A stretch of DNA of 64,000 nucleotides from an uncultured Gammaproteobacteria bacterium (lineage in GTDB: Bacteria; Patescibacteriota; Microgenomatia; Levybacterales; GWA1-39-11). Where the stretch lies: positions 135,525 through 199,524 of the forward strand of contig CAYVAJ010000001.1 in assembly GCA_964448725.1 (NCBI GenBank), given 5' to 3'. Under the pieces are notes generated by a model. That model did not search any database and was not told the DNA's origin. It saw only the letters and a list, made by a program, of their open reading frames with translations. Shown here piece after piece: positions 1-35,145 of the stretch (its first letter is position 1; each line of letters opens with the position of its first letter). The translations under genes were made by a program, and so were the position numbers.

Positions 1-1836
1 CTAAAAAGCAAAAGAATATAGGGATTTGGGAGTGGCAATATATATTGTTTTTGATGATTCATCAACGGTAAAATCAACAGCACTACTAAAAATATTCCAT
101 GAAAATTCTTGCTTGACCTCACCATTTTTACTGGTTATCAAAAGTCTTTGATTTGTTTTGTCTAATATATACACATAAGTATAGTCTTGAGCACTAAAAA
201 CTTGTGAGTTTTTACTCACAGATCCTTGTATTCCGGTGACGGTATATCCATCCTCTACTCCACGAGTAAATTTTTGTACTTTTCCCGAATCAAGGACAAC
301 ATAAATAGACCCATCAATACCCAGTGAGACTGGTGTGGTTTCAAGGGGATTTTCTAAATAGTTAGATGCACGATAGCTGCTTGGAGAGTATTTCTCAACC
401 ATTTTATCAGCACTATTAAGGATATATAAATTGCTCCCGAAAATATCAATTGATTTTCGTGCAGAATCAAGTTCAAACAACTCATCTTCAGACCCATTTC
501 CAAGATCTACTTCTTGGACACCAGTATCGGTAAGTAAATAGGCAAAGTCACGATTTGAAGTACTATCAATAATTGTTTTAGTTTCCAGATCGAATGAATC
601 CTTGATTTCTCCATCGTTTGTAAGAGTAACCAACGTATTTGCTTTATCTGTTACTATTAATGTTCCTCCTTTTACAGTAACAGTCTGGAGAGCATCTATT
701 TCTAAATCTTGTGCTGTTGCAACTTCCTCTCCGTTTTCAACCCGTACACCAGATGAAAATTGAGATAATTTAGTATCTACTTTTGCGAGTAAGGAAGTTA
801 CTGCTTTAATATTTTTATCATTGGGATATTGCTGGGCAGTTTTTGTGAGTAACTCTTTTGCTTTAGTAAATTTCTCGAGTGCTAATGGCCTGTTGATCGA
901 TTCAAGTGCAATTCCTTCTTCGTATTCAGCAGTTGCAGTGGATACTGTTTGCTCAATTGCTGCACTATTATCAGCAGATTGTTCTTGGTGAGAGCGGATA
1001 ATTATGCTACCCACTAATATGATGAGCAGGACGAGAATAAGCAAGCCAAGAAATAGTTTTTTACGAGATTGAAGAACTGAGATACCATTTTTTAGAGATG
1101 AAAGAGAGACTGCAGGGAGTGGTAATTTTTTTTGTTTTGGACTATCAGTGAGCAATTCTGTAACAGACTCATCAGAATAATCATTAGTTGTCTGCTCTTC
1201 TTCAATCGGTTCATCCTCTATAGAAGGAGTATCTGTAATAACTGTGGCTTCTGGATTAATGTATTGTAAAAGAATTGCTGCTTCTCCGCCAGTAGAATCT
1301 GCATGTAACAGAGGTGCAATATTTTCTGATAGTTCAGTAATGTTTGCTGTATGGAGGTAGGGATTGAGTACTGACGGGGTGAGTTTGTGTGCAAAATCAT
1401 CAGTCTGTATGATAATAATATCTCCATCTTGCAGTGGGCCGGTTACAGGAAGTACAGAATCTAGTTGTCCTTTTGCAATAATACCGAATTTCTCACCTCG
1501 TTTAATCGATACAGTTCCAGGTCCTGCAGTGATAATATACAGTGTGTCCTGATTATTGGTTACGAGAATCAGGGAGTGTTTTATGTTTGTTTCAACAGAG
1601 GCAATAGTATTTTCTACAGCTTTTTTTATACTTTCAATTGATTTTTCATCGAGAGAAAAATACTCGCGTTGTAATCTCTCAAGCATCTCTTTGCCTATTT
1701 GGGTTATTGGTTTTTCTCCTGTTTCCTCAACTGAGACGCTGAGTGTAACATAGAAATTTAATGTCGAGTATGCTTGTGACCACGATGTCTCTGTCGCGTT
1801 TGCGGCTAATTTTTCAATAAGAAATTGTGGATTCAT
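1..1836 (-). CDS. Partial CDS (C-terminus runs off the window start): membrane-anchored protein with N-terminal cytoplasmic domain, one TM segment and an extracytoplasmic beta-propeller-like repeat region
   Basis: 611-aa ORF open at position 1. Mid-protein hydrophobic segment LFLGLLILVLLIILVGSIII. C-terminal half shows repeated strand/turn pattern (YVYILD, IYIATP, LYILNS) typical of propeller repeats. No family assigned with certainty. Confidence 0.5.
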   Translation of the reverse strand: MNPQFLIEKLAANATETSWSQAYSTLNFYVTLSVSVEETGEKPITQIGKEMLERLQREYFSLDEKSIESIKKAVENTIASVETNIKHSLILVTNNQDTLYIITAGPGTVSIKRGEKFGIIAKGQLDSVLPVTGPLQDGDIIIIQTDDFAHKLTPSVLNPYLHTANITELSENIAPLLHADSTGGEAAILLQYINPEATVITDTPSIEDEPIEEEQTTNDYSDESVTELLTDSPKQKKLPLPAVSLSSLKNGISVLQSRKKLFLGLLILVLLIILVGSIIIRSHQEQSADNSAAIEQTVSTATAEYEEGIALESINRPLALEKFTKAKELLTKTAQQYPNDKNIKAVTSLLAKVDTKLSQFSSGVRVENGEEVATAQDLEIDALQTVTVKGGTLIVTDKANTLVTLTNDGEIKDSFDLETKTIIDSTSNRDFAYLLTDTGVQEVDLGNGSEDELFELDSARKSIDIFGSNLYILNSADKMVEKYSPSSYRASNYLENPLETTPVSLGIDGSIYVVLDSGKVQKFTRGVEDGYTVTGIQGSVSKNSQVFSAQDYTYVYILDKTNQRLLITSKNGEVKQEFSWNIFSSAVDFTVDESSKTIYIATPKSLYSFAF

Positions 1837-2075
1837 AGTGTGAGGCTCAGTATAGTATACCCAATAACCAGAACTGACGCTACTATATTTCCCATAGCGA
1901 TAAAACGTAAGACAGGAGAAAAGGAAATTTGGTCAACGTATCGAATAAGCGAGTTTATCTGTATATATAACATGAGTGAAAAAATACTATAAAGTACAGA
2001 GAATATAACAAGTACTGCTCGGTAAACGAGATCTTGTCCAGATAATATTGTATTTATGAGATCGATAGTTTCCAT
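1833..2075 (-). CDS. Small hydrophobic membrane protein, hypothetical
   Basis: 80-aa ORF with two hydrophobic stretches, stop/start overlap with flanking genes (operon-like packing). Confidence 0.4.
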   Translation of the reverse strand: METIDLINTILSGQDLVYRAVLVIFSVLYSIFSLMLYIQINSLIRYVDQISFSPVLRFIAMGNIVASVLVIGYTILSLTL

Positions 2076-2764
2076 TATTCTGATTTGTCTCTTGCCGCAT
2101 TTGCAAGTTGATTAATAATTTCTGCTACTTGAGATGGGTGTGAAACTTTATCAAATTCAAAGTTTGCCTCTACTGCTTCTGTCTGAATATTTACAGTTCC
2201 ATATCGAAAAACGGATTGAAGAATTCCTTTTTGCGTGTATGCCACATCTTCAACTGCTGCAATCTCAGTTTCAGCCACATTTTTTGACAAAATATTGTGC
2301 ATATCAATATCAACGAGTCGCTTATTGGTAATAAGTCCTACATGAAAATACCACTCAGCGAACTTAAGCAAACTATAGCCAAAAAGACTGAGATAATAGA
2401 GTAATAAAAAGCTTGTGGTGGTGAAAGGTGAGACCTGAATAAAAGAGAACGGTTGGGAAAAGATAGGAATGAGCAGAGGTACAAATAATAAGAAAATAAC
2501 CAGTAAAATCCAAGGAAGGTTTGTTATATGATGACGTCGTACGAGTATATGAATGGTCTCGTCTGGATCCTGACTGACAATAGTGACATTTTGAGGGTCA
2601 ATACAGAGTGATGAAAGGAAATTCAGCGAGTGACGTCTAATTTCTGGGTAGTGTGTATGAGGATGGTCATCAGATTTGCTTGAGGCAGAGTCTGAACGAG
2701 ATTCAGACGATGGAATAGCTGTCTTCTGTTGTAAAATAAACTCTCCTGATAAATTTTTGCTCAT
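2075..2764 (-). CDS. Membrane protein with bacterial PH (bPH_2, YdbS/YdbT-like) domain
   Basis: Two TM helices (LPWILLVIFLLFVPLLIPIF, FLLLYYLSLFGYSLL) followed by HVGLITNKRLVDIDMHNILSKNV..GILQSVFRYGTVNIQT, the bPH_2 pattern. Confidence 0.6.
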   Translation of the reverse strand: MSKNLSGEFILQQKTAIPSSESRSDSASSKSDDHPHTHYPEIRRHSLNFLSSLCIDPQNVTIVSQDPDETIHILVRRHHITNLPWILLVIFLLFVPLLIPIFSQPFSFIQVSPFTTTSFLLLYYLSLFGYSLLKFAEWYFHVGLITNKRLVDIDMHNILSKNVAETEIAAVEDVAYTQKGILQSVFRYGTVNIQTEAVEANFEFDKVSHPSQVAEIINQLANAARDKSE

Positions 2765-4479: not shown

Positions 4480-4518
4480 ATGCAGTACCTATTATAACAA
4501 ATTGTTTTGTGCGTATTT

Positions 4519-5898
4519 TTACTCTGGTTTTGGAGAAGTGAGGCAGTTACGTTCTCTTGTTTCATAATTAGCACATATCTCATATTTTGCCGCGTTATCT
4601 AATAGGCTATATTCATATTCCTTACGTGTAAGCGGGTCAGTGGGAAGTGTTTTATCGTTTGGAAGCTCTATCTCTGCAAGTGAATTAGGATATGTGCTAT
4701 TAAATACTCGATGATAGAGAATTGCTCCTTGTATTGTCTCTAAATCTTCTTGCCTCTGAATATCTCTACCTTCAGGAGTTGTAAGGGCATTTTTTGGTGC
4801 GGAAAAAGATTCGTTGTTGTTCTCAAATCTGGAGGAGTTGCTTAAAGATACAAACACTACTGCTCCCATAAGCCCTGCTATTGCAATAACTGCTAAAACA
4901 GGAGTAAATGAAAGTAAAAGGCGCGATTTCTGTGAAGGTGTAAATACAATAGTTTCAGCAGTTCTTTTAAGGTGAGTATACAACACATAATGATAAAGCA
5001 AATAAATTGGTGTGAGTGCGACCATTATTAATAAAACAATGAGAGATACAATCACTTGTATGGAGTTACCGCTTGTTGTTTCAGAAAGAATTCGTATAAC
5101 AATATACATGATGAGGCTAAAGCTTTGAATCACAGCTAGCCTGCCTAGTACACTCCAGAAACGTTTTTTAACATATAATTTACTTTTGAGTAATGCAGAA
5201 GCTCCATTGATATTTTCTTCTGAGAATATATAGATAAAGAAGCCAAACCAGGTAATAAATACAATATACAACAGTGGAAATAATAAGCTGAGAATTAATA
5301 GAGAACTGAAGATAAGCTGAGTCCAGTAGAATTTTCTAACTCGGGAGAATGCCATTTTAAATGACGGTATAATTTTTCTTTTTTGACTGATTCCTCCTAT
5401 GAGATAAATAAACGTGAGCTGTACCCATGTTTGAATATATACAGAATAAACGATATATATGAGAACCAAACTCCCTAGTATGATCAATAATGGGATAGGG
5501 TTTTGGGAAAATGCAACAGCAAGATTTTGAGGAGAAAATACAAAGATTCCTGTTATGTTTAAGCCAAATACAATTGCTCCAAGGACAAGTACAAAAAGAA
5601 TAAGTGCAAATATAAAAACAAATGTTAATAAAAAGAGTGACCCTACAATTCGGATAAAGTTTTGCTGGTAAAGAGAGAGTGTCTCAGTGAATAATTGAGC
5701 AATGTTGGGTAATGGAAAAAGAGTTTGAGATACTCCCTGTGTTGAATTTGTTTGTCTTTTATATTCTGCAAAGGCTGCATTAATATATGATTCCTGATAT
5801 CCATTTTGAAGTAATGTTGTTTTAATTTGGTCTTCTGTATACCCTTGGATCAGTGAAGTATTAATATAATCGAGTATTTCCTGAGGAATTGAATCCAT
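4519..5898 (-). CDS. Polytopic membrane protein, hypothetical
   Basis: 459-aa ORF with at least 8 hydrophobic helices between a small N-terminal soluble domain and a C-terminal tail. No recognised motif. Confidence 0.55.
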   Translation of the reverse strand: MDSIPQEILDYINTSLIQGYTEDQIKTTLLQNGYQESYINAAFAEYKRQTNSTQGVSQTLFPLPNIAQLFTETLSLYQQNFIRIVGSLFLLTFVFIFALILFVLVLGAIVFGLNITGIFVFSPQNLAVAFSQNPIPLLIILGSLVLIYIVYSVYIQTWVQLTFIYLIGGISQKRKIIPSFKMAFSRVRKFYWTQLIFSSLLILSLLFPLLYIVFITWFGFFIYIFSEENINGASALLKSKLYVKKRFWSVLGRLAVIQSFSLIMYIVIRILSETTSGNSIQVIVSLIVLLIMVALTPIYLLYHYVLYTHLKRTAETIVFTPSQKSRLLLSFTPVLAVIAIAGLMGAVVFVSLSNSSRFENNNESFSAPKNALTTPEGRDIQRQEDLETIQGAILYHRVFNSTYPNSLAEIELPNDKTLPTDPLTRKEYEYSLLDNAAKYEICANYETRERNCLTSPKPE

Positions 5899-6027
5899 AC
5901 TTTATTTAATCAGAAAAGTACAAACCAAGCAATTTTTCTTGTACGCCTCTTACCCGTTTTTCAATAGATCTTTATAGATTATGCTTAGCATTACAGATGT
6001 ATGAGACGAAAGGTGGTGATAGTTCCT

Positions 6028-6108
6028 ATGCCATATATACTGGCATGGTTATTAGGAGTACCGTTAGGAATATTATTATTAATCTGGCTTGCTACTCAAA
6101 TACTGTAA
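6028..6108 (+). CDS. Unannotated 26-aa hydrophobic small ORF (MPYILAWLLGVPLGILLLIWLATQIL)
   Basis: ATG at 6028 preceded at optimal spacing by strong SD AAAGGTGGTGA. Single predicted TM helix. TAA stop at 6106. Sits in a 212-bp intergenic gap. Below the 60-aa cutoff of the ORF track. Confidence 0.3.
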   Translation: MPYILAWLLGVPLGILLLIWLATQIL

Positions 6109-6110
6109 GT

Positions 6111-6449
6111 TTAGTGACGTATAGTTATTCTTTCTCGCAGCTTTGAAGCGGCAAGTCGAAATGGTGTTGCTGGTACAATTGGGATAAGTGCTGCAAGAAA
6201 GGATATAATACGATCTAACGTATCGAGCTGCGGACCAAAAATCATTTTTCCTTTATATGCCTCATACAAGCTTATCGCATCCCCTATTCCATAAGGTCCT
6301 AGTCCAAAAGGGATAGATTCGATGAATGTCCGTAGGGCAATAACTCCATTAGACATTTTGTCGTAAGGGTTATAAGAAACTTTTTCTAAATTTATTGTTT
6401 TCATCTTAAAATACTTAGGTCGGTTTAGTATAAAAAAAGGATATGACAA
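6111..6449 (-). CDS. Hypothetical protein
   Basis: 112-aa ORF. Possible internal start MKTINLEK. No recognised motif. Confidence 0.4.
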   Translation of the reverse strand: MSYPFFILNRPKYFKMKTINLEKVSYNPYDKMSNGVIALRTFIESIPFGLGPYGIGDAISLYEAYKGKMIFGPQLDTLDRIISFLAALIPIVPATPFRLAASKLRERITIRH

Positions 6450-6480
6450 TTATGTAAGAATGTGTGTAGATTATAAAAAT

Positions 6481-6555
6481 GGGTGCGCCTGCTTGGGATC
6501 GAACCAAGGACATCTACTTTATAAGAGTAGTGCTCTACCACTGAGCTACAGGCGC
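6481..6555 (-). tRNA. tRNA with anticodon UAU (reads AUA; tRNA-Ile2 type), no encoded CCA
   Basis: Reverse complement folds by hand as GCGCCTG-TA-GCTC-AGTGGTA-GAGC-A-CTACT-CTTATAA-AGTAG-ATGTC-CTTGG-TTCGATC-CCAAG-CAGGCGC-A. Anticodon loop CTTATAA gives TAT at positions 34-36. Confidence 0.7.
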
Positions 6556-6621
6556 AGTATTACTTTTTATCTTCAGATAAAGTAGGGTAATTATACACAA
6601 ATTTTGTGTTGGTAAAAAGTT

Positions 6622-9024
6622 TTAAATTTTCCCTTTTTGCCGAGGATCATTTTGATTGCCATCACTATCGCCGAGTACCTCAAATAATCGTGATCTTTTT
6701 GCTATCTCAGCTTCAACTAATTCTACTGGCCGTCCGTATTTTAATCTAGACAGTTCTCTGATAAGCTCAGTGACCCGAGGATTTTCAAGTTTCTTTTCAG
6801 CCTCAATATCACGGGTTAAATCCAGTGAAAATGGAGGGACAGGTTCTTCATTAATTTGAGTTTTGACATATGCATGATAACGCTCTACGTTAATTAAATC
6901 ACCTTCAGTAATATTGGGCTGGAATTCGTGCTGTAAATAATTTGCATCAGTAACACCAACACGAAATGATACAATGGTGCCAACATTTCCAAAAATAGCA
7001 TTTTTAATATCTTCATCCATCTGTCCAATAAATTGATTTGCAACAGTTAAGTTAAGTCGATATTTTCGTGCCTCAGATAAAATAGTGGCAAAATCAGGTG
7101 TTGCAAAGTTTTGAAACTCATCAACATAGAGATAAAAATCTTTTCTCTGATCTTGAGGGATGTCTTGTCTACTCATGGCAGCACTTAATAATTTTGGTAC
7201 TAATAGAAGTCCTAAGAATGCAGAATTTTCCTCACCAATTTTTCCTTTGGCAAGTGAGACAAATAGAATCTTTTTATTATCCATAACATCGCGAAATGAA
7301 AAAGCACTTTCACTTTGTCCGATCATATTTCTCATCATCTTATTGGTTACAAATCGACCGAATTTGGAGACGATATAGTCAAGTACTTCTGATTTATGGA
7401 AATCACTGGTTTGTGCGATCTGATCAGTCCAGTAGCGCCGTACCATCGGATCATTTACTTTTGGCAGAAGTTCTTGTACAAAAGATGGATCAGTGAGGAT
7501 TCGTACAACTTCTATAAATGTATTTCCTTTCTCTGCCATAACAGTCAACATGGCATTACGTACTGCATGCTCAAAGCGAGGACCTATAATACCAGTTTGG
7601 TTCGGATCAAAGAGTTTTCCCATAAGACCAATTACTGAGGCAACAATAAAATGTTTTTGTTCTTCTGTTGCTGCTTCAAGCATGTTGAGCCCCATTGGTC
7701 GGGTAGTATCTGAAGGGTCAAATATAATGACATCTTCTGCTCTCTCAGGTGGAATAAGTGGCAAGATTTGATCAATCGTATCGTGTGGATCAATAAAACA
7801 AACACCTTCTCCATTTCGAATATCCTGTAAAATCATATCCTTTAAAAATTCAGATTTACCAACACCAGTTTTACCAATAATATACATGTGTCTACGTCTG
7901 TCACTGCGCTGGAGATAGATGGGTTTGGAAATTCCGCGGTAAATACTTTTTCCAACAAATAGCCCAGTTGTTGGTACATTTGCTGGAGCTGGAGCAAGAC
8001 GTGATTTCATCCAGTTAATACTCGGAGAGTCAACGCTTTTATTTGGAAAGTGAAAAATCGTTGCAAGCTCTTCTGTGTTGAGTACTGAGCCTGAACCCCA
8101 GAGTGGTAAGTGGCGGTAGATAAAATCAACCATGAAAAAGCCTTTGGTCCAGCGCATTGTGTCTTTAGTAAAAGAATTATAGCCGGAAAATTGGGTAAAG
8201 GCACTGACAATATTTCCAAGATGAGCGTCAGCTGATTCTTCAGTTGATGATACTGTAACAATTCTGATAAATGTCTGAAATGCGGCTTTTGTCATTTTCT
8301 GATCAACTGCTTCAAGTTCTTTTTGATCTACAGAATATTTTGCTGTTTCAGGATCAGCCTCTTGTTTCTTTGTGTTTGAGATATGTGCGCGTCCGCCTGA
8401 TTTCCAGGAAGAATCAGCAGGAGTAATTAGTATCTGAATTGCAGCAGCTTCGCCTTCTTGCATTTTGCCAAGTGTGCTGGCAAAAGTAGAGAGAGGATCA
8501 ACCGGAAGATCTTTATATGTGCGGATTGGCTTATATTCTGCCTCATCAAGCTTGAGAGATGCGTATGCAACTTTTCCTTCTGGATTATCAAAGATATTAT
8601 ATTCTTCTACCTCTTCAATTTGTGCATCTGGATATGAACCATGGATCTGCTTCTCAACCATATCAAGTAATTTTTTGGGAACACTGACATACATACGAAT
8701 GTCTTGGGGTTTTGCGACAATGTCAAATGTGATAGAATCTGGGACTTTGAAAAATTTTAGTCTTCCTTTTGCTGTTTTAAGACTGGCAAAACTGGCAAAC
8801 ATTTGCTCTGCTGCGTCAATTTTTATTTCATTATCTCGGGGTAGGCGGATCTCAAGATGCGCCATATTTAGTGCTTTTTCATGGCGAGTTTTATTCTTTT
8901 TCCAGAGACCATAGAGAAATGCCAAACCAGTAATAAGTGCAATACTTGCAGAAACAATAATAAACGCCAAAATTATTGCGATTAATGTGTCTACTACTGA
9001 TGTGATTAACGTGTCAGGCTGCAT
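6622..9024 (-). CDS. VirD4/TraD/TrwB-like type IV coupling-protein family ATPase (FtsK/HerA-superfamily P-loop), N-terminal TM anchor plus unusually long pre-ATPase domain
   Basis: N-terminal hydrophobic hairpin. Walker A YIIGKTGVGKSEF followed by CFIDPHDT...VIIFDPSDTTRPMGLNML, the layout of T4CPs. Walker B-like FYLYVDEFQNF. C-terminal RLKYGRP tail. Confidence 0.7.
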   Translation of the reverse strand: MQPDTLITSVVDTLIAIILAFIIVSASIALITGLAFLYGLWKKNKTRHEKALNMAHLEIRLPRDNEIKIDAAEQMFASFASLKTAKGRLKFFKVPDSITFDIVAKPQDIRMYVSVPKKLLDMVEKQIHGSYPDAQIEEVEEYNIFDNPEGKVAYASLKLDEAEYKPIRTYKDLPVDPLSTFASTLGKMQEGEAAAIQILITPADSSWKSGGRAHISNTKKQEADPETAKYSVDQKELEAVDQKMTKAAFQTFIRIVTVSSTEESADAHLGNIVSAFTQFSGYNSFTKDTMRWTKGFFMVDFIYRHLPLWGSGSVLNTEELATIFHFPNKSVDSPSINWMKSRLAPAPANVPTTGLFVGKSIYRGISKPIYLQRSDRRRHMYIIGKTGVGKSEFLKDMILQDIRNGEGVCFIDPHDTIDQILPLIPPERAEDVIIFDPSDTTRPMGLNMLEAATEEQKHFIVASVIGLMGKLFDPNQTGIIGPRFEHAVRNAMLTVMAEKGNTFIEVVRILTDPSFVQELLPKVNDPMVRRYWTDQIAQTSDFHKSEVLDYIVSKFGRFVTNKMMRNMIGQSESAFSFRDVMDNKKILFVSLAKGKIGEENSAFLGLLLVPKLLSAAMSRQDIPQDQRKDFYLYVDEFQNFATPDFATILSEARKYRLNLTVANQFIGQMDEDIKNAIFGNVGTIVSFRVGVTDANYLQHEFQPNITEGDLINVERYHAYVKTQINEEPVPPFSLDLTRDIEAEKKLENPRVTELIRELSRLKYGRPVELVEAEIAKRSRLFEVLGDSDGNQNDPRQKGKI

Positions 9025-9427
9025 CTTTATGTTCCTCCTTTACTTTATTTACTGATTTCACATCAGAACGATATGAATCATCTTTGCTGAAAGGATTTCT
9101 TGAAAAGACACTATCAATTATCCCGGCAAATGGTTCAAAGAGAAAATCTATTGGATTATGCTTTGATTTTATCTCTGTAGCTTCTAGTGAATTGGTGTTA
9201 TGCCTGGGAGGATATTCAATAGGTATGTCTCTGTTGAGATTTGGATTTGCGATATTTGCTTCACCTGCAGTTGTTACATTTAAATTATGTTGTTCATATA
9301 GTTTCTGCACATCATTATTTAATTCATCATCTAGATTATGTGGATGAACATATTCTTCTGTCTCTTTTTCTGGTGTATATGGTGTGTTTTCACCTGCAAG
9401 TTGTGGGTGTAATTTTTCTGGTTCCAT
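9014..9427 (-). CDS. Acidic hypothetical protein, translationally coupled to the coupling-protein-like gene
   Basis: 137-aa ORF overlapping the stop of the upstream gene by 11 nt. No motif. Confidence 0.45.
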   Translation of the reverse strand: MEPEKLHPQLAGENTPYTPEKETEEYVHPHNLDDELNNDVQKLYEQHNLNVTTAGEANIANPNLNRDIPIEYPPRHNTNSLEATEIKSKHNPIDFLFEPFAGIIDSVFSRNPFSKDDSYRSDVKSVNKVKEEHKDAA

Positions 9428-9499
9428 ATGTTCATAATACCATAAATAGGTACTCGAATAGCTATATTTGCATCACAAAAACGTCACAAGATACACAAA

Positions 9500-9528
9500 T
9501 TGCGCAAGCTTATCCTTTTGGGTATAAT
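9500..9528 (+). promoter_or_regulatory. Putative sigma70-type promoter of tRNA-Ser(GCU): TTGCGC-17 bp-TATAAT
   Basis: TATAAT at 9523-9528, 13 nt before the tRNA 5' end. TTGCGC 17 bp upstream. Confidence 0.4.
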
Positions 9529-9541
9529 GTGCTGTACCACT

Positions 9542-9629
9542 GGAGGAGTCGCATAGCACGGTCCATTGCGGGGGATTGCTAATCCCCTGAGCCGAAAGGC
9601 TCGCGCAGGTTCGAATCCTGTCTCCTCCG
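9542..9629 (+). tRNA. tRNA-Ser (anticodon GCU), long variable arm, no encoded CCA
   Basis: GGAGGAG acceptor stem. Anticodon arm GGGGA-TTGCTAA-TCCCC. Variable hairpin GAGCC-GAAA-GGCTC. T-arm GCAGG-TTCGAAT-CCTGT. Acceptor CTCCTCC. Confidence 0.85.
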
Positions 9630-9719
9630 CACGTCAAACGTGGCTGTCGTGTTTGACGCGATGCCATAAGACAGGATGAGAAGCCCGCCTCGATGTTCAT
9701 CGGCAGTCCCCTTGGGGGA

Positions 9720-9745
9720 AATCCTGTCTCCTCCGCACGTCAAAC
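9720..9745 (+). repeat. 26-bp direct repeat of the tRNA-Ser(GCU) 3' end (AATCCTGTCTCCTCCGCACGTCAAAC), second copy 106 bp downstream of the first (9614-9639); att-site-like scar
   Basis: Exact 26/26 identity read directly from sequence. Intervening 80 bp contains two small palindromes (CGTCAAACG..CGTTTGACG; CGATG..CATCG). Confidence 0.7.
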
Positions 9746-9801
9746 AATACACCTTATTAACTCACTCTTATCATATATCGAAACAGTTATATAATAACAA
9801 C

Positions 9802-10485
9802 ATGACTGCTTTTCAAATAAAGCTGATTGCGATTATTACTATGACCATTGACCATGTGGGACTCTTTTTCTTCCCAGACGTAGAGGTATTGAGAATAATT
9901 GGGAGACTCTCATTTCCTCTCTTTGCTTGGCTTATTGCAAACGGTGCATATCATACAAAGAATATCAAGTCTTATATGCTACGGCTTTTTGTCTTTGCAT
10001 TTATTTCTCAAGTTCCATTTTGGCTTGCCTTTCACCTGATTTTTCCTGTAGACCTTGGATTAAATATTTTCTTCACTTTATTTCTCGGACTTGTTGCAAT
10101 TTATGGGAAACAAAAAATAAAAAACAATGTAGGGTGGATGTTATTAGTAATGCTCTGTTCTTTTACCGCGTTAATACTAAATACTGATTATGGCGCAGCA
10201 GGGGTATTGTCTATTGTAGGTTTTTATGTATTCTTTAATAATTTACCAAAATTGGTTGTCTTTCAAATGCTCCTATTTTTTCTGTTTTTTACTGTTCCTG
10301 CAATTTTATTGTATACGGAGACACTGCAATTGAATATCGTAGGTTTGTTACAGCCTATTGCCGTCACATCGTTATTTTTTATCGCAAAATATAATAAAAA
10401 AGAAGGACTAAAAGCAAAATATCTTTTTTACTTTTTTTATCCGCTTCATTTACTTGCTATTTATCTCATCTTTGTCTGGATATGA
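9802..10485 (+). CDS. TraX-family membrane protein
   Basis: MTAFQIKLIAIITMTIDHVGLFFFP matches the TraX N-terminal signature (K.IA...M.iDH.g). Polytopic. ORF-track start at 9676 overlaps the tRNA and is rejected; ATG at 9802 used. Confidence 0.7.
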   Translation: MTAFQIKLIAIITMTIDHVGLFFFPDVEVLRIIGRLSFPLFAWLIANGAYHTKNIKSYMLRLFVFAFISQVPFWLAFHLIFPVDLGLNIFFTLFLGLVAIYGKQKIKNNVGWMLLVMLCSFTALILNTDYGAAGVLSIVGFYVFFNNLPKLVVFQMLLFFLFFTVPAILLYTETLQLNIVGLLQPIAVTSLFFIAKYNKKEGLKAKYLFYFFYPLHLLAIYLIFVWI

Positions 10486-10488
10486 TAG

Positions 10489-10902
10489 TTATGTACTGGT
10501 ATCATTAGGTGTACTAGATGCAGGGTTTTCCTGTTCACCTTTTTTATATCTGAAATACCCATATCCGATTGCCGCAAGAAGAATCACTTCAACTGCAAAA
10601 TCAAGAAAATAGACCCAGTGGATTTGTGCACGGTAGATAATCTCGATAACCATAAATGCCAATGGTGAACCCGCAGCAAGGAAAAGAATGCTCCGTGTCT
10701 TTTCTTGACGAATAGATAATAACAAAGCTATTCCTATGACAATGATAAGCGCTGACACCATATGAAGTAAGAAGATATTGTTCTTTGGACCAGTTACAGC
10801 TTCAAAACTACTCAAATGCATAAAAGGCCAGATTCCTGTTAAGACATAATAACTTCCTTGTATTCCAAGTACCCAATCAAGGAGAGAAAAAGCTTTCTTC
10901 AT
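10489..10902 (-). CDS. Small polytopic membrane protein, hypothetical
   Basis: 137-aa ORF, four hydrophobic helices. Confidence 0.5.
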   Translation of the reverse strand: MKKAFSLLDWVLGIQGSYYVLTGIWPFMHLSSFEAVTGPKNNIFLLHMVSALIIVIGIALLLSIRQEKTRSILFLAAGSPLAFMVIEIIYRAQIHWVYFLDFAVEVILLAAIGYGYFRYKKGEQENPASSTPNDTST

Positions 10903-10991
10903 AAAATTACTTTACTGTTGCAAGATATGAAAAATGTGAAAAAAGTTGTGTGATAGTGTTAGAAAACAAGAGCTGCTTCTGATTTAAAAGA

Positions 10992-11020
10992 TTGACTGGA
11001 ATTGCGTGATAGCGTACAAT
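10992..11020 (+). promoter_or_regulatory. Putative promoter of tRNA-Ser(UGA): TTGACT-17 bp-TACAAT
   Basis: TTGACT at 10992-10997, 17-bp spacer, TACAAT 11015-11020, 14 nt before the tRNA start. Confidence 0.4.
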
Positions 11021-11034
11021 AAGTTCCACTATAA

Positions 11035-11121
11035 GGAGAGTTGGCCGAGCGGTTTATGGCGCTAGTCTTGAAAACTAGTGGGAGCAATCCCTCACAGGTT
11101 CGAATCCTGTACTCTCCGCCA
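11035..11121 (+). tRNA. tRNA-Ser (anticodon UGA), long variable arm, CCA encoded
   Basis: GGAGAGT acceptor. Anticodon arm CTAGT-CTTGAAA-ACTAG. Variable arm GGGAGCAATCCCTC. T-arm ACAGG-TTCGAAT-CCTGT. ACTCTCC-G-CCA. Confidence 0.85.
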
Positions 11122-11205
11122 CGTTTGAATTCTTATGCCTTAGGCATCTTGACTTTCCTCCTTTCAAAGTTTTTTCCTTCTCAGCACCCATGATATACTC
11201 GGTGT

Positions 11206-12114
11206 ATGTCTAAGTTAAAGACCGTAATTGATGAAAAAGAAGTAATTTCGTTTTTGCAAAATAATTTTGATAAGAATGTTAACTCAGTAAATTTTATAAC
11301 AGGAGGCGAAATGTCTCAGGCTTTTTCATTTTATACTGATAAAAATTATGTTATTCGTATTAATTCAAAGCAAGAAAGTTTTAATAAAGACAGATATGCT
11401 TTTGATCACTTCGCAAGTTACGAGCTTCCTATACCTCAGATATTTAAGATAGACCGATTTAATGAAAAATATTATTTTGCAATATCAGAGTTAGCAAAAG
11501 GAAAAAATTTAGACACATATAGTATAGATGATCAATACAAACTTCTTCCTCAGCTCATATCAATACTCGACACCATTCATAGTGTCCAGATTGATGATAC
11601 TAAGAAGTTTGGCTATTGGAATGAGAAGGGGGAGGCATTATTTGAAAGCTGGAAAGATTATATACTCAATAAGAAAGATGATGTTTATTCAAACTGGGAG
11701 AAGTTATATGAGGAGACATCTTTAGAAAAAGAAATTGTGAATCAAATCACAGAAAAAATAAATAAGCTTTGTGAGTTTTTACCTGAAGAAAGATATTTGG
11801 TACATGGGGATTATGGTAGTAATAATGTTACTGCAGATGGAGAGAAAATAACAGGTATTCTTGATTGGGGAGAATCTTTATATGGCGACTTCCTTTATGA
11901 TGTTGCATGGCTTCAATTCTGGTCATCTGGTATTTCTTATAGCGTGATTTTTAAGGATCATTATGAAAAGACCAACAAGAATTGTGATTATTATCATGAA
12001 AGATTACTTTGTTATCAACTCCACTTGGGATTAGGTGCTTTGGGGTTTTTTGCATTATCAGATCAAAAGAGTTCATATATATGGACTAAAGAGAAGATAC
12101 TTTCTTTAATGTAG
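11206..12114 (+). CDS. Aminoglycoside phosphotransferase of the APH(4)/hygromycin-B kinase (Hph) family
   Basis: Collinear similarity to Hph recalled from memory: SQAFSF, YVIRINS..FNKDRYAFDHFAS.ELPIPQIF (Hph: YVLRVNS..FYKDRYVYRHFAS.ALPIPEVL). Catalytic LVHGDYGSNNV..DGEKITGILDWGESLYGD (Hph: LVHADFGSNNV..DNGRITAVIDWSEAMFGD). Confidence 0.85.
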   Translation: MSKLKTVIDEKEVISFLQNNFDKNVNSVNFITGGEMSQAFSFYTDKNYVIRINSKQESFNKDRYAFDHFASYELPIPQIFKIDRFNEKYYFAISELAKGKNLDTYSIDDQYKLLPQLISILDTIHSVQIDDTKKFGYWNEKGEALFESWKDYILNKKDDVYSNWEKLYEETSLEKEIVNQITEKINKLCEFLPEERYLVHGDYGSNNVTADGEKITGILDWGESLYGDFLYDVAWLQFWSSGISYSVIFKDHYEKTNKNCDYYHERLLCYQLHLGLGALGFFALSDQKSSYIWTKEKILSLM

Positions 12115-12151
12115 TAACTAAATTTAGGTAAAAACTAATAATATCTACTCA

Positions 12152-13036
12152 TTACTTCTTTTTTAATCCAGGAAGAGAGCCTTTTGTTGGTACTTGTTGT
12201 AGTTCCACAAATTTGCTGTATAGAAAGAACAAAATTCCGATTGCTAGGTATATCTCCATCAGTTCTTCCCATTGGTCAAACATGGCATCACCAAATCTTC
12301 CACGTAAGTACGCATATACAATTATGGGAATGAAAAAGCCAATTAATCTCCATGAAGGACTGAAATATCCTATTACTGTAGTTACAAGACGGGGAAATCG
12401 AGCCTTGTGCATTCCTTTAACTATAGCCCAGGCAGAAGCTGCATAAAAACCAAGTAATGCATAAGCCAAATATACATATTGAAATACTGATTTTTGGTTA
12501 TGAATATTAAATTCAAACTGAGTATTATTTTTAGCAATTGCATCAGGTGTTTCAAATCCGATAATTCGCTGTCCCCACGATATTTCTTCTCCAGCAATCA
12601 CAAAAGAAGCAACCATAATACCAGCAAAAATGATGAGATAAAATCGTTTCCATGAAGACGGAAGTTTGGGCATTTTTTGAATGAGACGTACACAGCGATA
12701 AGAAACAACACCTGCTAATATATATACTCCAAATGTTAGATACTCAGTAAGAGAATCTTCTTTTTCTATATACCAAAAAACATCTGGTAAATTCCATTTA
12801 AAGTACACAGCTAAAGATAAGACCCAGAATGGAATTACGAATAGCAACCAATTCTTATATTTTTTTAAAAAAGCCAAATCAAAAATCAGTAAGGAAATAG
12901 CTGAAAGATAAAGTGCGATTGGCTCAAGAAGTGGCGGGTGAATATGAAAAGTACTAAAGAAGAAATTAGCATGGACTATTGGGTGGATGATCTGGATACC
13001 TGCACAGGTGGCTACAATTATGGGAAATATAATCAA
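12152..13036 (-). CDS. Polytopic membrane protein, hypothetical
   Basis: 294-aa ORF, about 8 hydrophobic helices. No recognised motif. Confidence 0.55.
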   Translation of the reverse strand: MIIFPIIVATCAGIQIIHPIVHANFFFSTFHIHPPLLEPIALYLSAISLLIFDLAFLKKYKNWLLFVIPFWVLSLAVYFKWNLPDVFWYIEKEDSLTEYLTFGVYILAGVVSYRCVRLIQKMPKLPSSWKRFYLIIFAGIMVASFVIAGEEISWGQRIIGFETPDAIAKNNTQFEFNIHNQKSVFQYVYLAYALLGFYAASAWAIVKGMHKARFPRLVTTVIGYFSPSWRLIGFFIPIIVYAYLRGRFGDAMFDQWEELMEIYLAIGILFFLYSKFVELQQVPTKGSLPGLKKK

Positions 13037-13042
13037 AATTAC

Positions 13043-13228
13043 TTACTGTAATTTTTCAGGGAAAGATTTACGTAAGATGAAGCGGTAGACAAAAAGAGCA
13101 ATCAGACTTGGAAGAAATACAAAATCTGTTGAGATTTTAAAATGATTAGCGATAAATCCTGAATACGTAAAGAGTTCTAAAAAATAGATGCCTACGGTAA
13201 AAAGAACAAGAGCCAAAACAAAGTACAT
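13043..13228 (-). CDS. Small membrane protein, hypothetical
   Basis: 61-aa ORF, two hydrophobic helices, 6 nt downstream of the preceding gene. Confidence 0.35.
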   Translation of the reverse strand: MYFVLALVLFTVGIYFLELFTYSGFIANHFKISTDFVFLPSLIALFVYRFILRKSFPEKLQ

Positions 13229-13366
13229 ATCTACACCATACTATCGGAAAACAAGAAAATGCGCAATAGGACTCAGAACTTATAAGATATGACTATTATT
13301 TCCTTGCTCTCTTCTTACAAAACTATCGTATCTCTCTCACTATAAGCCAGTATAGTATGCTCAAAG

Positions 13367-22350: not shown

Positions 22351-23459
22351 TAGCAGCAATTATTGTTGTGATAATTTTTGTGCTTGGATTTAAATATCTT
22401 CGAGCAGGGATTCCTTTCTTATACGAATTATTTGTAAAAAAAGATGAAATCCAACTCAAGCGAGAAGAACAACACTCATTGAATATTTTGCTACTCGGGA
22501 TAGGAGGAGCAAATCATGAAGGACCAAATCTCTCTGATACGATTATTCTTGCGAATATTAACCCCCAAAAAAATGAGGTAAATATGTTCTCTCTCCCTCG
22601 TGATCTTTGGATTCCACAATTAAAAGATAGAATTAATTCTGCCTATGCCTATGGTGAAGAAAAAGATAAAAAAGGCATGTTGTTAGCATCGACAGTTGTT
22701 GAGAAAGTAACAGGCCAGCCAGTAGACTATGTGTTCGTGATCGATTTTTCAGGTTTTGTAAAAGGAGTTGATCATATGGGAGGAATTGATGTTGAAGTTG
22801 CTCGTACATTAGATGATTATGCCTACCCTATTGCAGGAAAAGAGAATGATCTGTGTGGACATACACCTGAGGATGTGGATGCACTTGTTGCAACTGCAGA
22901 GGCAGAGCTGGGATTAGAGGTGTTCCCGTGTCGGTATAAGCATGTTCATGTTGAAAAAGGGCAACAACACATGAATGGACAGCAAGCGCTTGAGTTTGTG
23001 AGATCACGGCACGCGATTGGGGAAGAAGGATCAGATTTTGCTAGAAGTCGCCGTCAACAAGAAGTGATTGCAGCTGTTCGGAAAAAGGCGCTGTCACTGG
23101 GAATTCTGCTTAATCCAGTAAAAGTATTAGGGTTGGTAAATATTGTTCAAGAAAATATAAATACAGATATAAAAAAAGAAGAATATGATGACTTTATCAA
23201 ACTTGCAAATAAAATGGAAAATGTCACAATCAAAAGCCATGTAATTGGTATGGCAGAAAGTGATCAAGAATATGGTCTGCTCATTAACCCAACTCCATCA
23301 GAAGAATATCAGTACAAGTGGGTACTGACTCCTCGAAAAGGGAGTGGGGATTTTTCAGAATTACATGCATATATTGAGTGTGTACTAAAAGGGAATAATT
23401 GTGAAATTACTAAGACAGGAATACGTACTGCCACGGATGCGGCCTCACTAGTACATTAA
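22329..23459 (+). CDS. LytR-CpsA-Psr (LCP) family cell-wall polymer transferase
   Basis: N-terminal TM, then LNILLLGIGGANHEGPNLSDTIILANINP..FSLPRDLW, the LCP core. Overlaps tpiA stop by 22 nt. Confidence 0.85.
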   Translation: MRHKKLLIAAIIVVIIFVLGFKYLRAGIPFLYELFVKKDEIQLKREEQHSLNILLLGIGGANHEGPNLSDTIILANINPQKNEVNMFSLPRDLWIPQLKDRINSAYAYGEEKDKKGMLLASTVVEKVTGQPVDYVFVIDFSGFVKGVDHMGGIDVEVARTLDDYAYPIAGKENDLCGHTPEDVDALVATAEAELGLEVFPCRYKHVHVEKGQQHMNGQQALEFVRSRHAIGEEGSDFARSRRQQEVIAAVRKKALSLGILLNPVKVLGLVNIVQENINTDIKKEEYDDFIKLANKMENVTIKSHVIGMAESDQEYGLLINPTPSEEYQYKWVLTPRKGSGDFSELHAYIECVLKGNNCEITKTGIRTATDAASLVH

Positions 23460-25594
23460 TTAGTAATTTTATAAATTGTTACTGTATTGTTTTTATATAC
23501 AACTTTTCCAAGTGTTTTAAATTTTTCTTCAGATAAATGAGTATATTTTTGTTTTTCAAGGTCGCCAATGTAGACATATTCAATGCCATACTTTCGTACT
23601 AATTCTTGTGTCGTAGCTAGAGAGGATGTTTCATATAGTATCCGTATATCCTCAATTCGCGGTGCAGGAATATCATAGCTTCCTCGCCAAAGCCATTCAT
23701 GCACTGTCCATCCCAGTACTGTGGGAAGACCGGTATTAACAGATATGCGCGCATAATCAGTATATGAATCACCGTGTGATTCAAGAATAATTGGTTGTCC
23801 TGTGATAGTATTGTTCAGCCATGTAATTGCTTCATAATCTGAAGGATACCGATCTTTAAGATAAGCAGTACCATCAAGTCCTTGGTAAAGCGAAAGATTA
23901 TTATAATAGGAATGAATTGCAAAACGCGGATATAACAGTACTAATGCAATGAGTAACACTGATACAGCTGTGAGTACAATATTTTTCTTTGGTTTTATTA
24001 CCGTTGTTGCTACGACTGCACTGACGAGTGAGAGCATAATAAATGCTTGGTAAGTGAGCTTAAACATGGTATTTGCCCGGTAATGATCAGGGTAGATATC
24101 TTTTATATAGGCAAATTCAGGAATAATAATAAGTACTGTCGCTACAAGAGCCAGAATAATACAAAAAACATATGCAGGCTTTATACGATCTTTTGTACTT
24201 TTCCATAGTGCTATAAACAGGGTTATAACAAAAAAATAGAAGAAACCATATAATACCAACAACATCCACCACTCTGATCGTTGACAGTGATCTTGCTCAA
24301 ACAGAAAAGGACCGATTGCACCATAATTTGTTAAAAAATCTGGGGCACACAAGATTCCAATACCTGAGGCAAATGGTTTAAAATGCAGACTAAATGGAAG
24401 AGTAAATGCGAGTGCACTCAGGATAATAAGAATGAATGGTCTCAGACCGTCAAGTACTATATGCGAAAAAAATGATTCATCTGAATATTTCTTCTTCTTA
24501 TTCTTCAAAGCAAACACTGATTTTTTTTGTAGGAGTAAATAGCCAAGTGTTACTCCTGTCAGAATACTATAAATTCCAAAATCAAGGACATTTGTCATAT
24601 ACATGATCGAAAGCAAAAAACCTAGAAAAATCACTTTCAAATAAGAAAGTTTTTTTGTTTGAATAAGAGTAAAAAGAAATGCAATACAGGTGAGGACGAC
24701 AGGAATATCAAATACATGTCCATGGAGATCTGAGACAACAAACGAATAGAGAGGGAATTCGTGAATCGTATTCGGTATAAAACGTGTTGCGTTTGGATAC
24801 CAGTACCCGTTTGATAAAATCCCAAATGGTTTAAAAGCAAGATCCCAGAATGGAACAGGATTTTCTGATGGAACATATGATGCAAAAAATGCATACAGTA
24901 TATGAAGATTTCCAGATACACTAACAAGGAGTGCTGCTAGTGTTGCAGTAAGAATACTTTTAATAATAGAGAGTTTGAGATTTTGTGCTAATGCATAGCC
25001 GATTGAAAAACTTGTTCCAACGGTAAGTGCAAATAACGTAGCAACCATTAAGTTATACGTATAATTTGAGGGAAGAAAAGAAAGTTTTGTCAACACTGCG
25101 GTTATTAAATGTCCAAAGTAATAATAATTAATTGAAAATGGTGGGAACCACATATCTAAAGGAGGAAAGTATTCACTGCGTAAAATCGAGTTAATGAATC
25201 CAAAATCCATAAATTTTTCCAGACCATTAATACTTGGTTCATGACTACGCACATAACTCCATAATGCAAGTGCTACAAAGAAAAGGATCTCTTCGCCAAT
25301 CCATATAAGAAATGTCTTTTTAGAAATAGTTTTTACCTGTTTTTTAAATAAAATAACATTGAGAATTAAGATACTTCCGGTTATCAGTAAAAGAGATGGT
25401 GCCGAAAACGGAAGAACTTTAAGTGTCCCAAGAAGAAACATGATATATGATAAAAGAAGCGCTGCAATAACCTTTGAGAATAAATATCCTTTATCTGCAA
25501 ACGATGCAAAGATTATCATAGTAATAGGTAAGGAGATAAGTCCGAGTAATAAAAGCACTCCGTACCATTGAAAAAATATGGTGATATCAGTCAT
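23456..25594 (-). CDS. Chlor_Arch_YYY (DUF2298)-type large polytopic membrane protein, putative GT-C-like glycosyltransferase
   Basis: 712 aa, more than 12 TM helices. Motif FPPFSINYYYFGH (the YYY signature) at the expected N-proximal position. C-terminal soluble domain. Confidence 0.65.
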   Translation of the reverse strand: MTDITIFFQWYGVLLLLGLISLPITMIIFASFADKGYLFSKVIAALLLSYIMFLLGTLKVLPFSAPSLLLITGSILILNVILFKKQVKTISKKTFLIWIGEEILFFVALALWSYVRSHEPSINGLEKFMDFGFINSILRSEYFPPLDMWFPPFSINYYYFGHLITAVLTKLSFLPSNYTYNLMVATLFALTVGTSFSIGYALAQNLKLSIIKSILTATLAALLVSVSGNLHILYAFFASYVPSENPVPFWDLAFKPFGILSNGYWYPNATRFIPNTIHEFPLYSFVVSDLHGHVFDIPVVLTCIAFLFTLIQTKKLSYLKVIFLGFLLSIMYMTNVLDFGIYSILTGVTLGYLLLQKKSVFALKNKKKKYSDESFFSHIVLDGLRPFILIILSALAFTLPFSLHFKPFASGIGILCAPDFLTNYGAIGPFLFEQDHCQRSEWWMLLVLYGFFYFFVITLFIALWKSTKDRIKPAYVFCIILALVATVLIIIPEFAYIKDIYPDHYRANTMFKLTYQAFIMLSLVSAVVATTVIKPKKNIVLTAVSVLLIALVLLYPRFAIHSYYNNLSLYQGLDGTAYLKDRYPSDYEAITWLNNTITGQPIILESHGDSYTDYARISVNTGLPTVLGWTVHEWLWRGSYDIPAPRIEDIRILYETSSLATTQELVRKYGIEYVYIGDLEKQKYTHLSEEKFKTLGKVVYKNNTVTIYKITN

Positions 25595-27191: not shown

Positions 27192-27196
27192 GCATG

Positions 27197-34827: not shown

Positions 34828-35145
34828 TTATATAGGTTCTTCTATTTGATTGGATGATTCCTCAACCTCAGCACTGATTGAACTCTCTTGTATCTCAGTA
34901 TTAGGTGGAAGAATATACTCCGCAGTTTCAGAGAGATCAATTGGGACTGAAATTCGACTACCTACTTGTTCCATTGTCTGAGTATCAAAAGAGGGAGGAA
35001 TAGGGGTTGTATACTTGCTTGTATCTTCTGAAATCGTTGGACTAGTGATACTAAAGTATAGTGTTGCTCCAATCCAAGTTACCACAACAAAGGTTGTTAA
35101 GATTGCTCCATAGTATAAGTGTTTTAATACTGTATTACTGTGCAT
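34828..35145 (-). CDS. Small single-pass membrane protein, hypothetical (pilus-assembly-operon member)
   Basis: 105 aa, one TM (ILTTFVVVTWIGATLYF), acidic C-terminus. Start overlaps the upstream gene stop. Confidence 0.45.
   Translation of the reverse strand: MHSNTVLKHLYYGAILTTFVVVTWIGATLYFSITSPTISEDTSKYTTPIPPSFDTQTMEQVGSRISVPIDLSETAEYILPPNTEIQESSISAEVEESSNQIEEPI

Follow-up and report, generated by a model that had tools for sequence, protein, structure and literature searches.

Three tRNA genes crowd into 4.6 kb of a Levybacteria contig, together with genes for a type IV secretion system (T4SS)-family ATPase, a TraX-family membrane protein and an aminoglycoside phosphotransferase (APH)-family kinase, and such an assemblage raises the question of whether it is the remnant of an integrative and conjugative element (ICE) or a part of the core chromosome. 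The stretch in question (positions 6,481 to 12,114) lies in a window of 64,000 nucleotides (GenBank contig CAYVAJ010000001.1, positions 135,525 to 199,524), which is the whole stretch of DNA analysed here and whose proteins have their top matches in metagenome-assembled genomes (MAGs) of Candidatus Levybacteria/Levyibacteriota (Microgenomates, Patescibacteria/candidate phyla radiation). The initial annotation of this DNA had listed the three tRNAs, a type IV coupling protein (T4CP)-like ATPase with a coupled acidic open reading frame (ORF), a TraX gene and an APH-like gene, and all of them were confirmed at their positions (Table 1). It had also read the stretch as a decayed or mosaic ICE landing zone, not core chromosome. 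This reading is not supported, because the composition is uniform, the tRNA/ATPase framework is syntenic, the ATPase clade is chromosomal, and neither TraX nor the ATPase is linked to conjugation genes. It is highly probable that the stretch is a conserved core tRNA-ATPase locus with accessory-gene slots that work without an integrase, and not the remnant of an ICE.

In the explanation that we favour, the skeleton of the locus, which comprises tRNA-Ser(TGA), tRNA-Ser(GCT), a two-gene operon and tRNA-Ile(TAT), would be ancestral core chromosome of the Levybacteria and would have been inherited vertically. The operon would consist of a fast-evolving acidic small ORF and an ATPase carrying the domain DUF8128, and this ATPase would be one of the 'orphan' chromosomal T4SS-family ATPases, which lie far from virB4 and are not accompanied by relaxases. 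The spaces beside the tRNA-Ser genes would act as slots that gain or lose one to three small accessory genes by lineage, with no integrase involved. In the window, TraX and a small membrane protein would occupy one slot and the APH-like kinase with further membrane proteins the other, and in some relatives the tRNA-Ser slot would be filled by free-standing homing-endonuclease-type genes.

The core-locus explanation is supported by several lines of evidence. First, the gene order is conserved. The loci of relatives (labelled L001, L002 and so on) formed an ATPase-anchored synteny set of 80 loci, 79 of which were used for the tRNA counts. The order tRNA-Ser(TGA), tRNA-Ser(GCT), small ORF, ATPase, tRNA-Ile(TAT) is kept in essentially all Levybacteria loci, with the tRNA-Ser(TGA)/tRNA-Ser(GCT) pair upstream of the ATPase operon and tRNA-Ser(TGA) paired in most Levybacteria. 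In 45 of the 79 Microgenomates loci, every Levybacteria-type locus included, tRNA-Ile(TAT) comes after the ATPase at a distance of no more than 1.6 kb, and this linkage extends to Gottesman-, Beckwith-, Chisholm- and Shapirobacteria. On the far side of the ATPase, SpoIID and two more genes keep their synteny in more than 20 loci, and the 112-aa ORF downstream of tRNA-Ile is kept only in the closest relatives. The density of tRNAs had been counted in favour of an ICE, with the tRNAs as integration sites. Exactly three tRNAs are present in the 64-kb window, all within 4.6 kb (ARAGORN and Rfam, with Rfam scores of 51-75 bits), and this density is an inherited, conserved cluster, neither a product of chance nor a mark of insertion; the tRNAs are conserved neighbours of the ATPase and not insertion boundaries. 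The locus shows no presence/absence as a unit, since the ATPase and tRNAs are kept in relatives and the small modules vary, each independently. Thus, the presence/absence polymorphism that had been raised for this locus exists for modules of one to three genes beside the tRNA-Ser genes but not for the tRNA/ATPase framework.

Within this conserved order the tRNA genes around the ATPase switch strand among relatives (L004, L005, L006, L013, L014, L015, L017, L018, L021 and L029). tRNA-Ile(TAT) is inverted in five loci, and the tRNA-Ser pair is elsewhere co-directional, inverted or divergent, which suggests frequent small inversions at the tRNA cluster. In addition, four Levybacteria carry an intact-looking tRNA-Ser(ACT) (A34; anticodon loop TTACTAA) adjoining tRNA-Ser(GCT), and in one of them, L001, tRNA-Ser(ACT) was found and tRNA-Ser(GCT) was not detected. 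A tRNA-Ser with A34 is unusual in bacteria.

Second, the ATPase itself is strongly conserved. Its orthologues in 80 genomes, spanning Levy-, Gottesman-, Roizman-, Shapiro-, Woese-, Beckwith- and Chisholmbacteria, are 58-93% identical and have equal length and architecture, and at the same loci the identities are 61-64% for UvrD, 41-67% for SpoIID and about 30-63% for two unknown neighbours. By these values the ATPase is the most conserved protein of its neighbourhood, with a degree of conservation beyond that of housekeeping neighbours, which speaks against a surviving gene of a decaying element. An alignment of 39 homologues has 237 invariant columns, among which are those of Walker A and Walker B. 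An exhaustive search returned 5,787 clusters (50% identity) at E ≤ 1e-30, and DUF8128 (PF26449) covers the N-terminal region in all homologues. The neighbours of the ATPase in the 80 loci are tRNAs, SpoIID and accessory genes; no relaxase/DNA-transfer (Dtr) module or mating-pair formation (MPF) cluster is linked to it there, and no VirB3, VirB6 or VirB8 homologues are adjacent to it.

Third, neither composition nor gene content sets the stretch apart from the rest of the window. The GC content is uniform across the window (0.32-0.42), and the genes of the flagged region lie inside the window's own spread in GC, GC3, codon-usage distance and tetranucleotide distance, so that the comparison with the flanks, which the initial annotation had regarded as informative, gave no sign of foreign DNA. 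The remaining genes of the window have housekeeping and envelope functions (SpoIID, TIM, UvrD, LepA, GroEL, MurJ, PilN/PilO, MetRS, HrcA-GrpE-DnaK, FemAB, LytR and numerous glycosyltransferases). No integrase, relaxase, transposase or VirB4 was found in the 64-kb window (recombinase domains were sought in ORFs of at least 120 aa), and what had been said of the stretch alone, that no integrase or relaxase is visible, is true for the whole window. In the relatives' equivalent regions, too, integrase, relaxase and VirB4 were lacking, and no recombinase was found among the genes abutting the tRNA-Ser genes in about 20 versions of the locus, whether occupied or empty.

The ATPase consists of an N-terminal transmembrane (TM) helix, DUF8128 at about residues 53-340 and a motor of the T4CP/VirB4 type, in which Walker A reads GKTGVGKS (at 384) and Walker B reads LYVDEF (at 632). 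Its Pfam T4CP matches, to which the ICE reading appeals, are weak and above cutoffs (PF10412, 29.2 vs 20.5 bits; PF02534, 25.5 vs 20.1 bits; PF12696, 25.2 vs 22 bits), and it also matches DUF87 in Pfam. The NCBIfam models of TraD, VirD4 and TrbC gave 30-51 bits against cutoffs of 250-800, with the TraD/VirD4 equivalog scores 7-20 times under the NCBIfam cutoffs. When VirB4 profiles (CagE_TrbE_VirB, AAA_10 and those of NCBIfam) were examined, no Pfam match was obtained, and the only hit was a partial one to VirB4_plasma (20 bits vs a cutoff of 590). As a side observation, the motor domain of the ATPase is also found at the C-terminus of larger proteins of 1,300-2,000 aa (P0376, P0383, P0393-P0398 and P0423-P0460).

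Predicted structures place the protein close to VirB4. The AlphaFold2 (AF2) model of the full-length ATPase (pLDDT 74.8) had the full-length VirB4/TrwK of plasmid R388 as its top PDB match in Foldseek (E 1e-15), followed by DotL, HerA, Cag-beta, TrwB and the VirB4 C-terminal domain (E 1e-9 to 1e-10), and its TM-score against 4ag6, on the target, reached up to 0.69. When residues 1-350 were modelled separately (pLDDT 87.8, pTM 0.83), the top 13 PDB matches were all VirB4/TrwK (E 1.7e-8 to 8e-6, query TM-score 0.42-0.48). DUF8128 thus models as a domain resembling the VirB4 N-terminal domain, which is a modest new structural point; no mention of DUF8128 was found in the literature searched. Two other readings of the ATPase were considered and rejected. 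For a phage origin, only four IMG/VR contigs contained relatives, at 33-42% identity and with the motor domain alone. For a defence-system ATPase, the PADLOC match to mad8 amounted to only 65 bits, HerA matches were weak, and partner genes were absent.

Compared with known systems, the ATPase combines features of two classes. With TrwB, VirD4 and TraD it has in common an N-terminal membrane anchor and a P-loop motor in which a helical insertion separates Walker A from Walker B. However, in classical T4CPs the TM anchor is followed directly by the nucleotide-binding domain and an all-alpha domain, whereas the ATPase has an extra DUF8128 of about 290 aa between the TM helix and the motor; it also differs in having no relaxase, oriT or MPF genes nearby and in being a vertically inherited core gene. 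With VirB4/TrwK it shares the two-domain layout (an N-terminal domain and a RecA-like C-terminal motor) and a length of about 800 aa, but the sequence identity is 8-10%, no VirB4 profile matches beyond the 20-bit partial hit, and VirB3, VirB6 and VirB8 neighbours are lacking. In Patescibacteria, the bona fide VirB4 is single-copy and usually encoded near dnaA/dnaN (PMC12102498), and the ATPase described here is not this canonical VirB4.

The closest comparison is provided by a survey of 2,918 Patescibacteria genomes, in which 5,713 VirD4-like T4CP homologues were counted, of which 148 were near virB4, and in which relaxases were rare (Quinonero-Coronel et al. 2025, PMC12102498). These orphan T4CPs, like our ATPase, are chromosomal, lie far from virB4 and relaxase genes, occur in nearly every genome, and have T4CP matches and intact Walker motifs. 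Judged by these shared features, the window ATPase probably belongs to the same set. It falls in a chromosomal, vertically inherited clade (PMC12102498), and orphan chromosomal T4CP homologues being the rule in Patescibacteria is a further argument against an ICE. The VirB4-like fold of DUF8128, the coupled fast-evolving ORF and the linkage to tRNA-Ile and tRNA-Ser are not described in that paper. Its authors found that a t4cp gene is non-essential in Southlakia epibionticum, and stated for the orphan homologues that exaptation 'cannot be ruled out' (PMC12102498). Orphan T4SS-family ATPases of Patescibacteria and plasticity slots beside tRNA genes are both known kinds of feature.

The ATPase is most likely an oligomeric motor for translocation, bound to the membrane, which belongs to the VirB4/VirD4 clade and was kept as a core gene. 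A substrate and partners are presumed for it, and its role most likely lies in housekeeping or in the epibiotic lifestyle, and not in ICE coupling. As a tentative and rather doubtful extension, the DUF8128 ATPases might form a third branch of T4SS motors, in which a T4CP-like motor would be joined to a VirB4-type N-terminal domain and one TM helix, and would not be coupling proteins. Such an ATPase and its fast-evolving acidic partner might serve the epibiotic lifestyle as a core translocase that is independent of the T4SS of Patescibacteria, for instance in the uptake or export of DNA or protein at the host interface, and the small ORF might encode an adaptor or substrate that is specific to the host. 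As a separate matter, the tRNA-Ser gap might be a recurrent target of free-standing homing endonucleases that bring cargo.

The acidic ORF shares 11 nt with the start of the ATPase gene, and through this overlap the two are predicted to be translationally coupled. In most loci a co-oriented ORF of about 100-180 aa stands directly upstream of the ATPase, often with the identical 11-nt overlap, and the window ORF has no Pfam or NCBIfam family match. Homology between the acidic ORF and its positional counterparts was considered and rejected, since jackhmmer found none and the position and the C-terminus forced by the overlap are all that they have in common. The common ending of these small ORFs (AA followed by the stop) is found because the overlap with the conserved ATPase start forces it. 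We regard the small ORF as a positional orthologue with very fast evolution.

In contrast to the stable framework, the spaces beside the tRNA-Ser genes are variable. Of 18 loci, 11 have an empty gap of 12-244 nt between their two tRNA-Ser genes, and the other seven have 890-2403 nt there with unrelated cargo, whose contents range from TraX to oxidoreductase, transporter and homing-endonuclease-type genes (Table 1). Particularly, genes of the LAGLIDADG and GIY-YIG types recur, in one case as the sole insert, and free-standing homing-endonuclease-type genes may contribute to the cargo turnover in this gap. Such variable accessory genes beside tRNAs, whose content differs among relatives, resemble tRNA-associated genomic islands, and variable cargo next to tRNA-Ser is also among the points that have favoured an ICE. 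Unlike those islands, the locus has no integrase, its cargo is not flanked by att repeats, its composition does not deviate, and the cargo is only one to three genes.

TraX is full-length against its family, and its PF05857 match is another argument raised for an ICE. Its true start is at 9802, where homologues begin with MTAFQ, and not at the ORF starts 9676 or 9799. The in-frame ATG at 9676, which lies inside an 80-nt insert described below, lengthens the ORF by 42 codons (to a 269-aa ORF), and automatic annotation could mis-call the TraX start owing to it. F-plasmid TraX, the pilin N-acetylase, is a member of the same family with the same fold, but the window protein is far under the F-type and TrbP equivalog cutoffs of NCBIfam (TIGR02755, TraX_Ftype, 50 vs 149; NF010260, 32 vs 419; NF010454, 51 vs 206) and has no conjugation context. 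Among relatives, TraX occurs at the ATPase/tRNA locus only in L001, L002, L007 and L087. There are many TraX-family homologues with about 50% identity, and they are found in non-conjugative chromosomal contexts, as in L088, whose copy sits in an unrelated housekeeping setting; no tra genes lie near TraX in the window, L007, L087 or L088. The small membrane protein of 137 aa encoded beside it has an orthologue beside TraX in L007 and travels with TraX.

On the other side of tRNA-Ser(TGA), the APH module is a lineage-specific 2.16-kb insertion, a clean indel relative to L007, whose ATPase is 93% identical. The kinase carries HGDYGSNN at 200 and DWG at 220, and shares the PF01636 fold and the catalytic HxDxxxxN and DxG motifs with the hygromycin kinase APH(4)-Ia, but it scores 148 bits against a cutoff of 725 for the APH(4)-Ia model of NCBIfam and has no resistance-element context. 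All named homologues of this kinase come from Patescibacteria. In three other Levybacteria, homologues with 54-59% identity are located between rpsG (S7) and fusA (EF-G), with other small accessory genes, and one of these genomes is the same MAG as L008, in which the tRNA-Ser pair is unoccupied. The rpsG-fusA interval is a second accessory-gene slot, which splits the str operon. In other Levybacteria, the distance from tRNA-Ser(TGA) to a conserved ATP-cone gene is 1-7 kb, filled mostly by singleton genes, and the genes abutting the tRNA in this interval encode GNAT, NUDIX, alpha/beta-hydrolase, RibD_C, Na/Ca exchanger and M23 peptidase proteins, with 0 recombinases among them. The named homologues of TraX and the kinase are for the most part chromosomal genes in Patescibacteria. 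From these family contexts, the TraX-family and APH-family genes seem to be ordinary chromosomal accessory genes of Patescibacteria and not cargo of conjugation or resistance islands.

The most durable of the alternatives holds that the TraX and APH modules are islets made by integrases at tRNA-Ser 3' ends, with the integrases since lost and a 26-nt direct repeat as attL/attR. This repeat, a duplicated tRNA-Ser 3' end that had been noticed from the start, is real: copies at 9614-9639 and 9720-9745 are exact, and 0 of 100 shuffles gave a single match. It covers the tRNA 3' end and runs 9 nt beyond it, which favours the islet origin, as do the start of the APH insertion 13 nt after tRNA-Ser(TGA) and the slot cargo differing by lineage; it also belongs among the observations cited for an ICE. 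In the insert between the copies, the tRNA 3'-end core recurs in inverted and degenerate form (GTTTGACG...AGACAGGAT, 9651-9678). Insert and second copy together make a segment of 106 nt, which is absent from L007, L001 and L002 and 100% identical in three independent SRA assemblies, and it is therefore not an assembly artefact. The only near-identical contigs, L084-L086, are 100% identical across this segment, so they are uninformative on strain-level presence/absence. However, the repeats bracket 80 nt alone and no gene, neither the TraX nor the APH module, and the polarity, with the partial copy upstream of the TraX module, misfits integration of that module at a tRNA 3' end. Alignment of the APH-module junctions gave no convincing att-like duplication, no integrase was found in the roughly 20 occupied or empty locus versions, and the cargo of 0.9-2.4 kb is too small for typical islands. 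Further copies of the 26-nt core, which the initial annotation had thought worth seeking as att-like sites, were found neither in the window nor in IMG/VR viral contigs or JGI metagenomes. On this balance an islet origin is improbable.

The 106-nt segment may have been left behind by an integrated element that was later lost, or it may have arisen through local duplication by template switching, and whichever origin applies, the 26-nt repeat does not turn the genes around it into an ICE. Three other identities were tried and rejected. The core as the att site of a circulating element was dismissed in view of the collections just named, in which (IMG/VR and JGI metagenomes) an internal 24-mer of the 80-nt insert was likewise absent. 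As a decayed tRNA-Ser(ACT), by comparison with L001, L002, L014 and L015, the segment gave no alignment and no local similarity above that of shuffles. As a known or structured RNA, the 80-nt insert had no Rfam match above noise and a fold z-score of -1.6, which is not significant.

A further alternative, which we regard as very improbable, is that the ATPase operon is the remnant of a conjugative element of the MPF-FATA (monoderm) type that was domesticated anciently beside tRNA-Ile in the Microgenomates ancestor and was then fixed and exapted. The T4SS ancestry of the ATPase family, the tRNA-Ile(TAT) adjacency in 45 of 79 loci and the single ancient horizontal transfer proposed for the T4SS in Patescibacteria (PMC12102498) are consistent with it, but no other element genes stand beside the operon, and the conserved tRNA adjacency may be plain ancestral gene order. 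It departs from the core-locus explanation in deep history alone, and the present data do not separate the two. Finally, the view of the 5.6-kb stretch as an ICE landing zone, mosaic or in decay, with the ATPase and TraX as surviving conjugation genes, is scarcely credible and has been largely refuted by synteny, as the ATPase and its flanking tRNAs hold their position across Levybacteria, and tRNA-Ile does so across much of Microgenomates.

Some observations weigh against the explanation of a conserved core locus. Site-specific integration leaves scars such as the perfect 26-nt duplication seen at the 3' end of tRNA-Ser(GCT), and the position of the APH module just past a tRNA 3' end is classical for islands. 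The ATPase strongly matches the uncharacterised phage/prophage family phrog_5156 (315 bits), which, with the descent of its family from conjugation machinery, leaves room for an ancient mobile origin. In addition, the search for partners (VirB4, relaxase and integrase) covered 64 kb of the genome. The relatives are all MAGs, and L007, the closest among those with long flanks, has only 65-80% DNA identity to the window; parsimony was therefore used to judge whether each indel is a gain or a loss.

We believe that these results have several implications. T4CP-like and TraX-family genes beside tRNAs in Patescibacteria should not be taken for ICE remnants, and orphan T4SS-family ATPases are conserved core genes in these bacteria. 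In Patescibacteria the T4SS is essential for epibiotic growth, and the VirB4-like fold of DUF8128, the coupled rapidly evolving ORF and the deep tRNA-Ile(TAT) linkage can be used as handles on an uncharacterised family of more than 5,000 clusters. The tRNA-Ser slot is also a small, clean case of integrase-free accessory-gene turnover in reduced genomes.

Table 1. Features of the window and of related loci, with positions numbered within each locus.
Locus	Feature	Position	Strand	Remarks
Window	Second lineage-specific insertion	4502-6014	-	Between conserved SpoIID gene and 112-aa ORF
Window	459-aa polytopic membrane protein	4519-5898		Within 4502-6014; no family match
Window	112-aa ORF	6111-6449	-	Downstream of tRNA-Ile; 69-78% identical in L001, L002, L007; no family match
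Window	tRNA-Ile(TAT)	6480-6556	-	ARAGORN; Rfam 74.7 bits
Window	T4SS-family membrane-anchored P-loop ATPase, 800 aa	6622-9024	-	Pfam, NCBIfam, AF2 models, Foldseek
Window	Acidic low-complexity ORF, 137 aa	9014-9427	-	Overlaps ATPase start by 11 nt
Window	tRNA-Ser(GCT)	9542-9630	+	ARAGORN, Rfam
Window	26-nt repeat copy 1	9614-9639	+	Last 17 nt of tRNA-Ser(GCT) and 9 nt downstream
Window	Insert between repeat copies, 80 nt	9640-9719	+	59% GC
Window	26-nt repeat copy 2	9720-9745	+	
Window	Gap cargo: TraX, small membrane protein			1404 nt
Window	TraX-family (PF05857) polytopic membrane protein	9802-10485	+	Pfam 143.5 bits vs cutoff 25, E 1e-41, full-length
Window	Small membrane protein, 137 aa	10489-10902	-	65% identical orthologue beside TraX in L007; no family match
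Window	tRNA-Ser(TGA)	11035-11121	+	ARAGORN, Rfam
Window	Insertion vs L007, 2.16 kb	11135-13297		blastn breakpoints; begins 13 nt after tRNA-Ser(TGA)
Window	APH-family small-molecule kinase	11206-12114	+	Pfam PF01636 78 bits
Window	Polytopic membrane protein, 294 aa	12152-13036	-	Part of 2.16-kb insertion; no known family; no counterpart in 80 loci
Window	Hydrophobic ORF, 61 aa	13043-13228	-	Part of 2.16-kb insertion; no family
L001, L002	Gap cargo: TraX			
L007	Gap cargo: TraX, small membrane protein, MFS transporter			
L010	Gap cargo: LAGLIDADG gene, DAO oxidoreductase	7238-7936		Position of LAGLIDADG gene
L011	Gap cargo: LAGLIDADG gene	8422-9195		Sole insert
L015	Gap cargo: two unknown genes			
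L018	Gap cargo: DAO oxidoreductase			
L019	Gap cargo: VIT1, GIY-YIG	8734-8976		Position of GIY-YIG
L087	Same locus: GIY-YIG, NUDIX, TraX, trehalose-phosphate synthase/phosphatase, MFS	4917-5165		Position of GIY-YIG
L001	tRNA-Ser(ACT)	871-956		
L002	tRNA-Ser(ACT)	1999-2084		
L014	tRNA-Ser(ACT)	998-1083		
L015	tRNA-Ser(ACT)	9116-9201		
L081	APH homologue	6001-6927		
L082	APH homologue	6001-6915		
L083	APH homologue	6001-6927		

The window has a few other features that stand apart from the tRNA-ATPase locus. The insertion between SpoIID and the 112-aa ORF corresponds to about 97 bp at the same place in L007 and is absent from L001 and L002. Farther along, at 23456-32110 and 35135-36387, DUF2298 and three to four PMT_2-type glycosyltransferase paralogues with an epimerase are encoded, followed by the PilO/PilN genes, and large ORFs with no family match are located at 1-1836, 46544-47995 and 61350-63719. 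In addition, database records that carry a Microgenomates-type locus are often titled 'uncultured Gammaproteobacteria bacterium', 'uncultured Pseudomonadales' or 'Weeksellaceae bacterium' (L003-L007, L011, L013, L014, L016, L070 and others), and these titles are probably taxonomic mislabels of MAGs.

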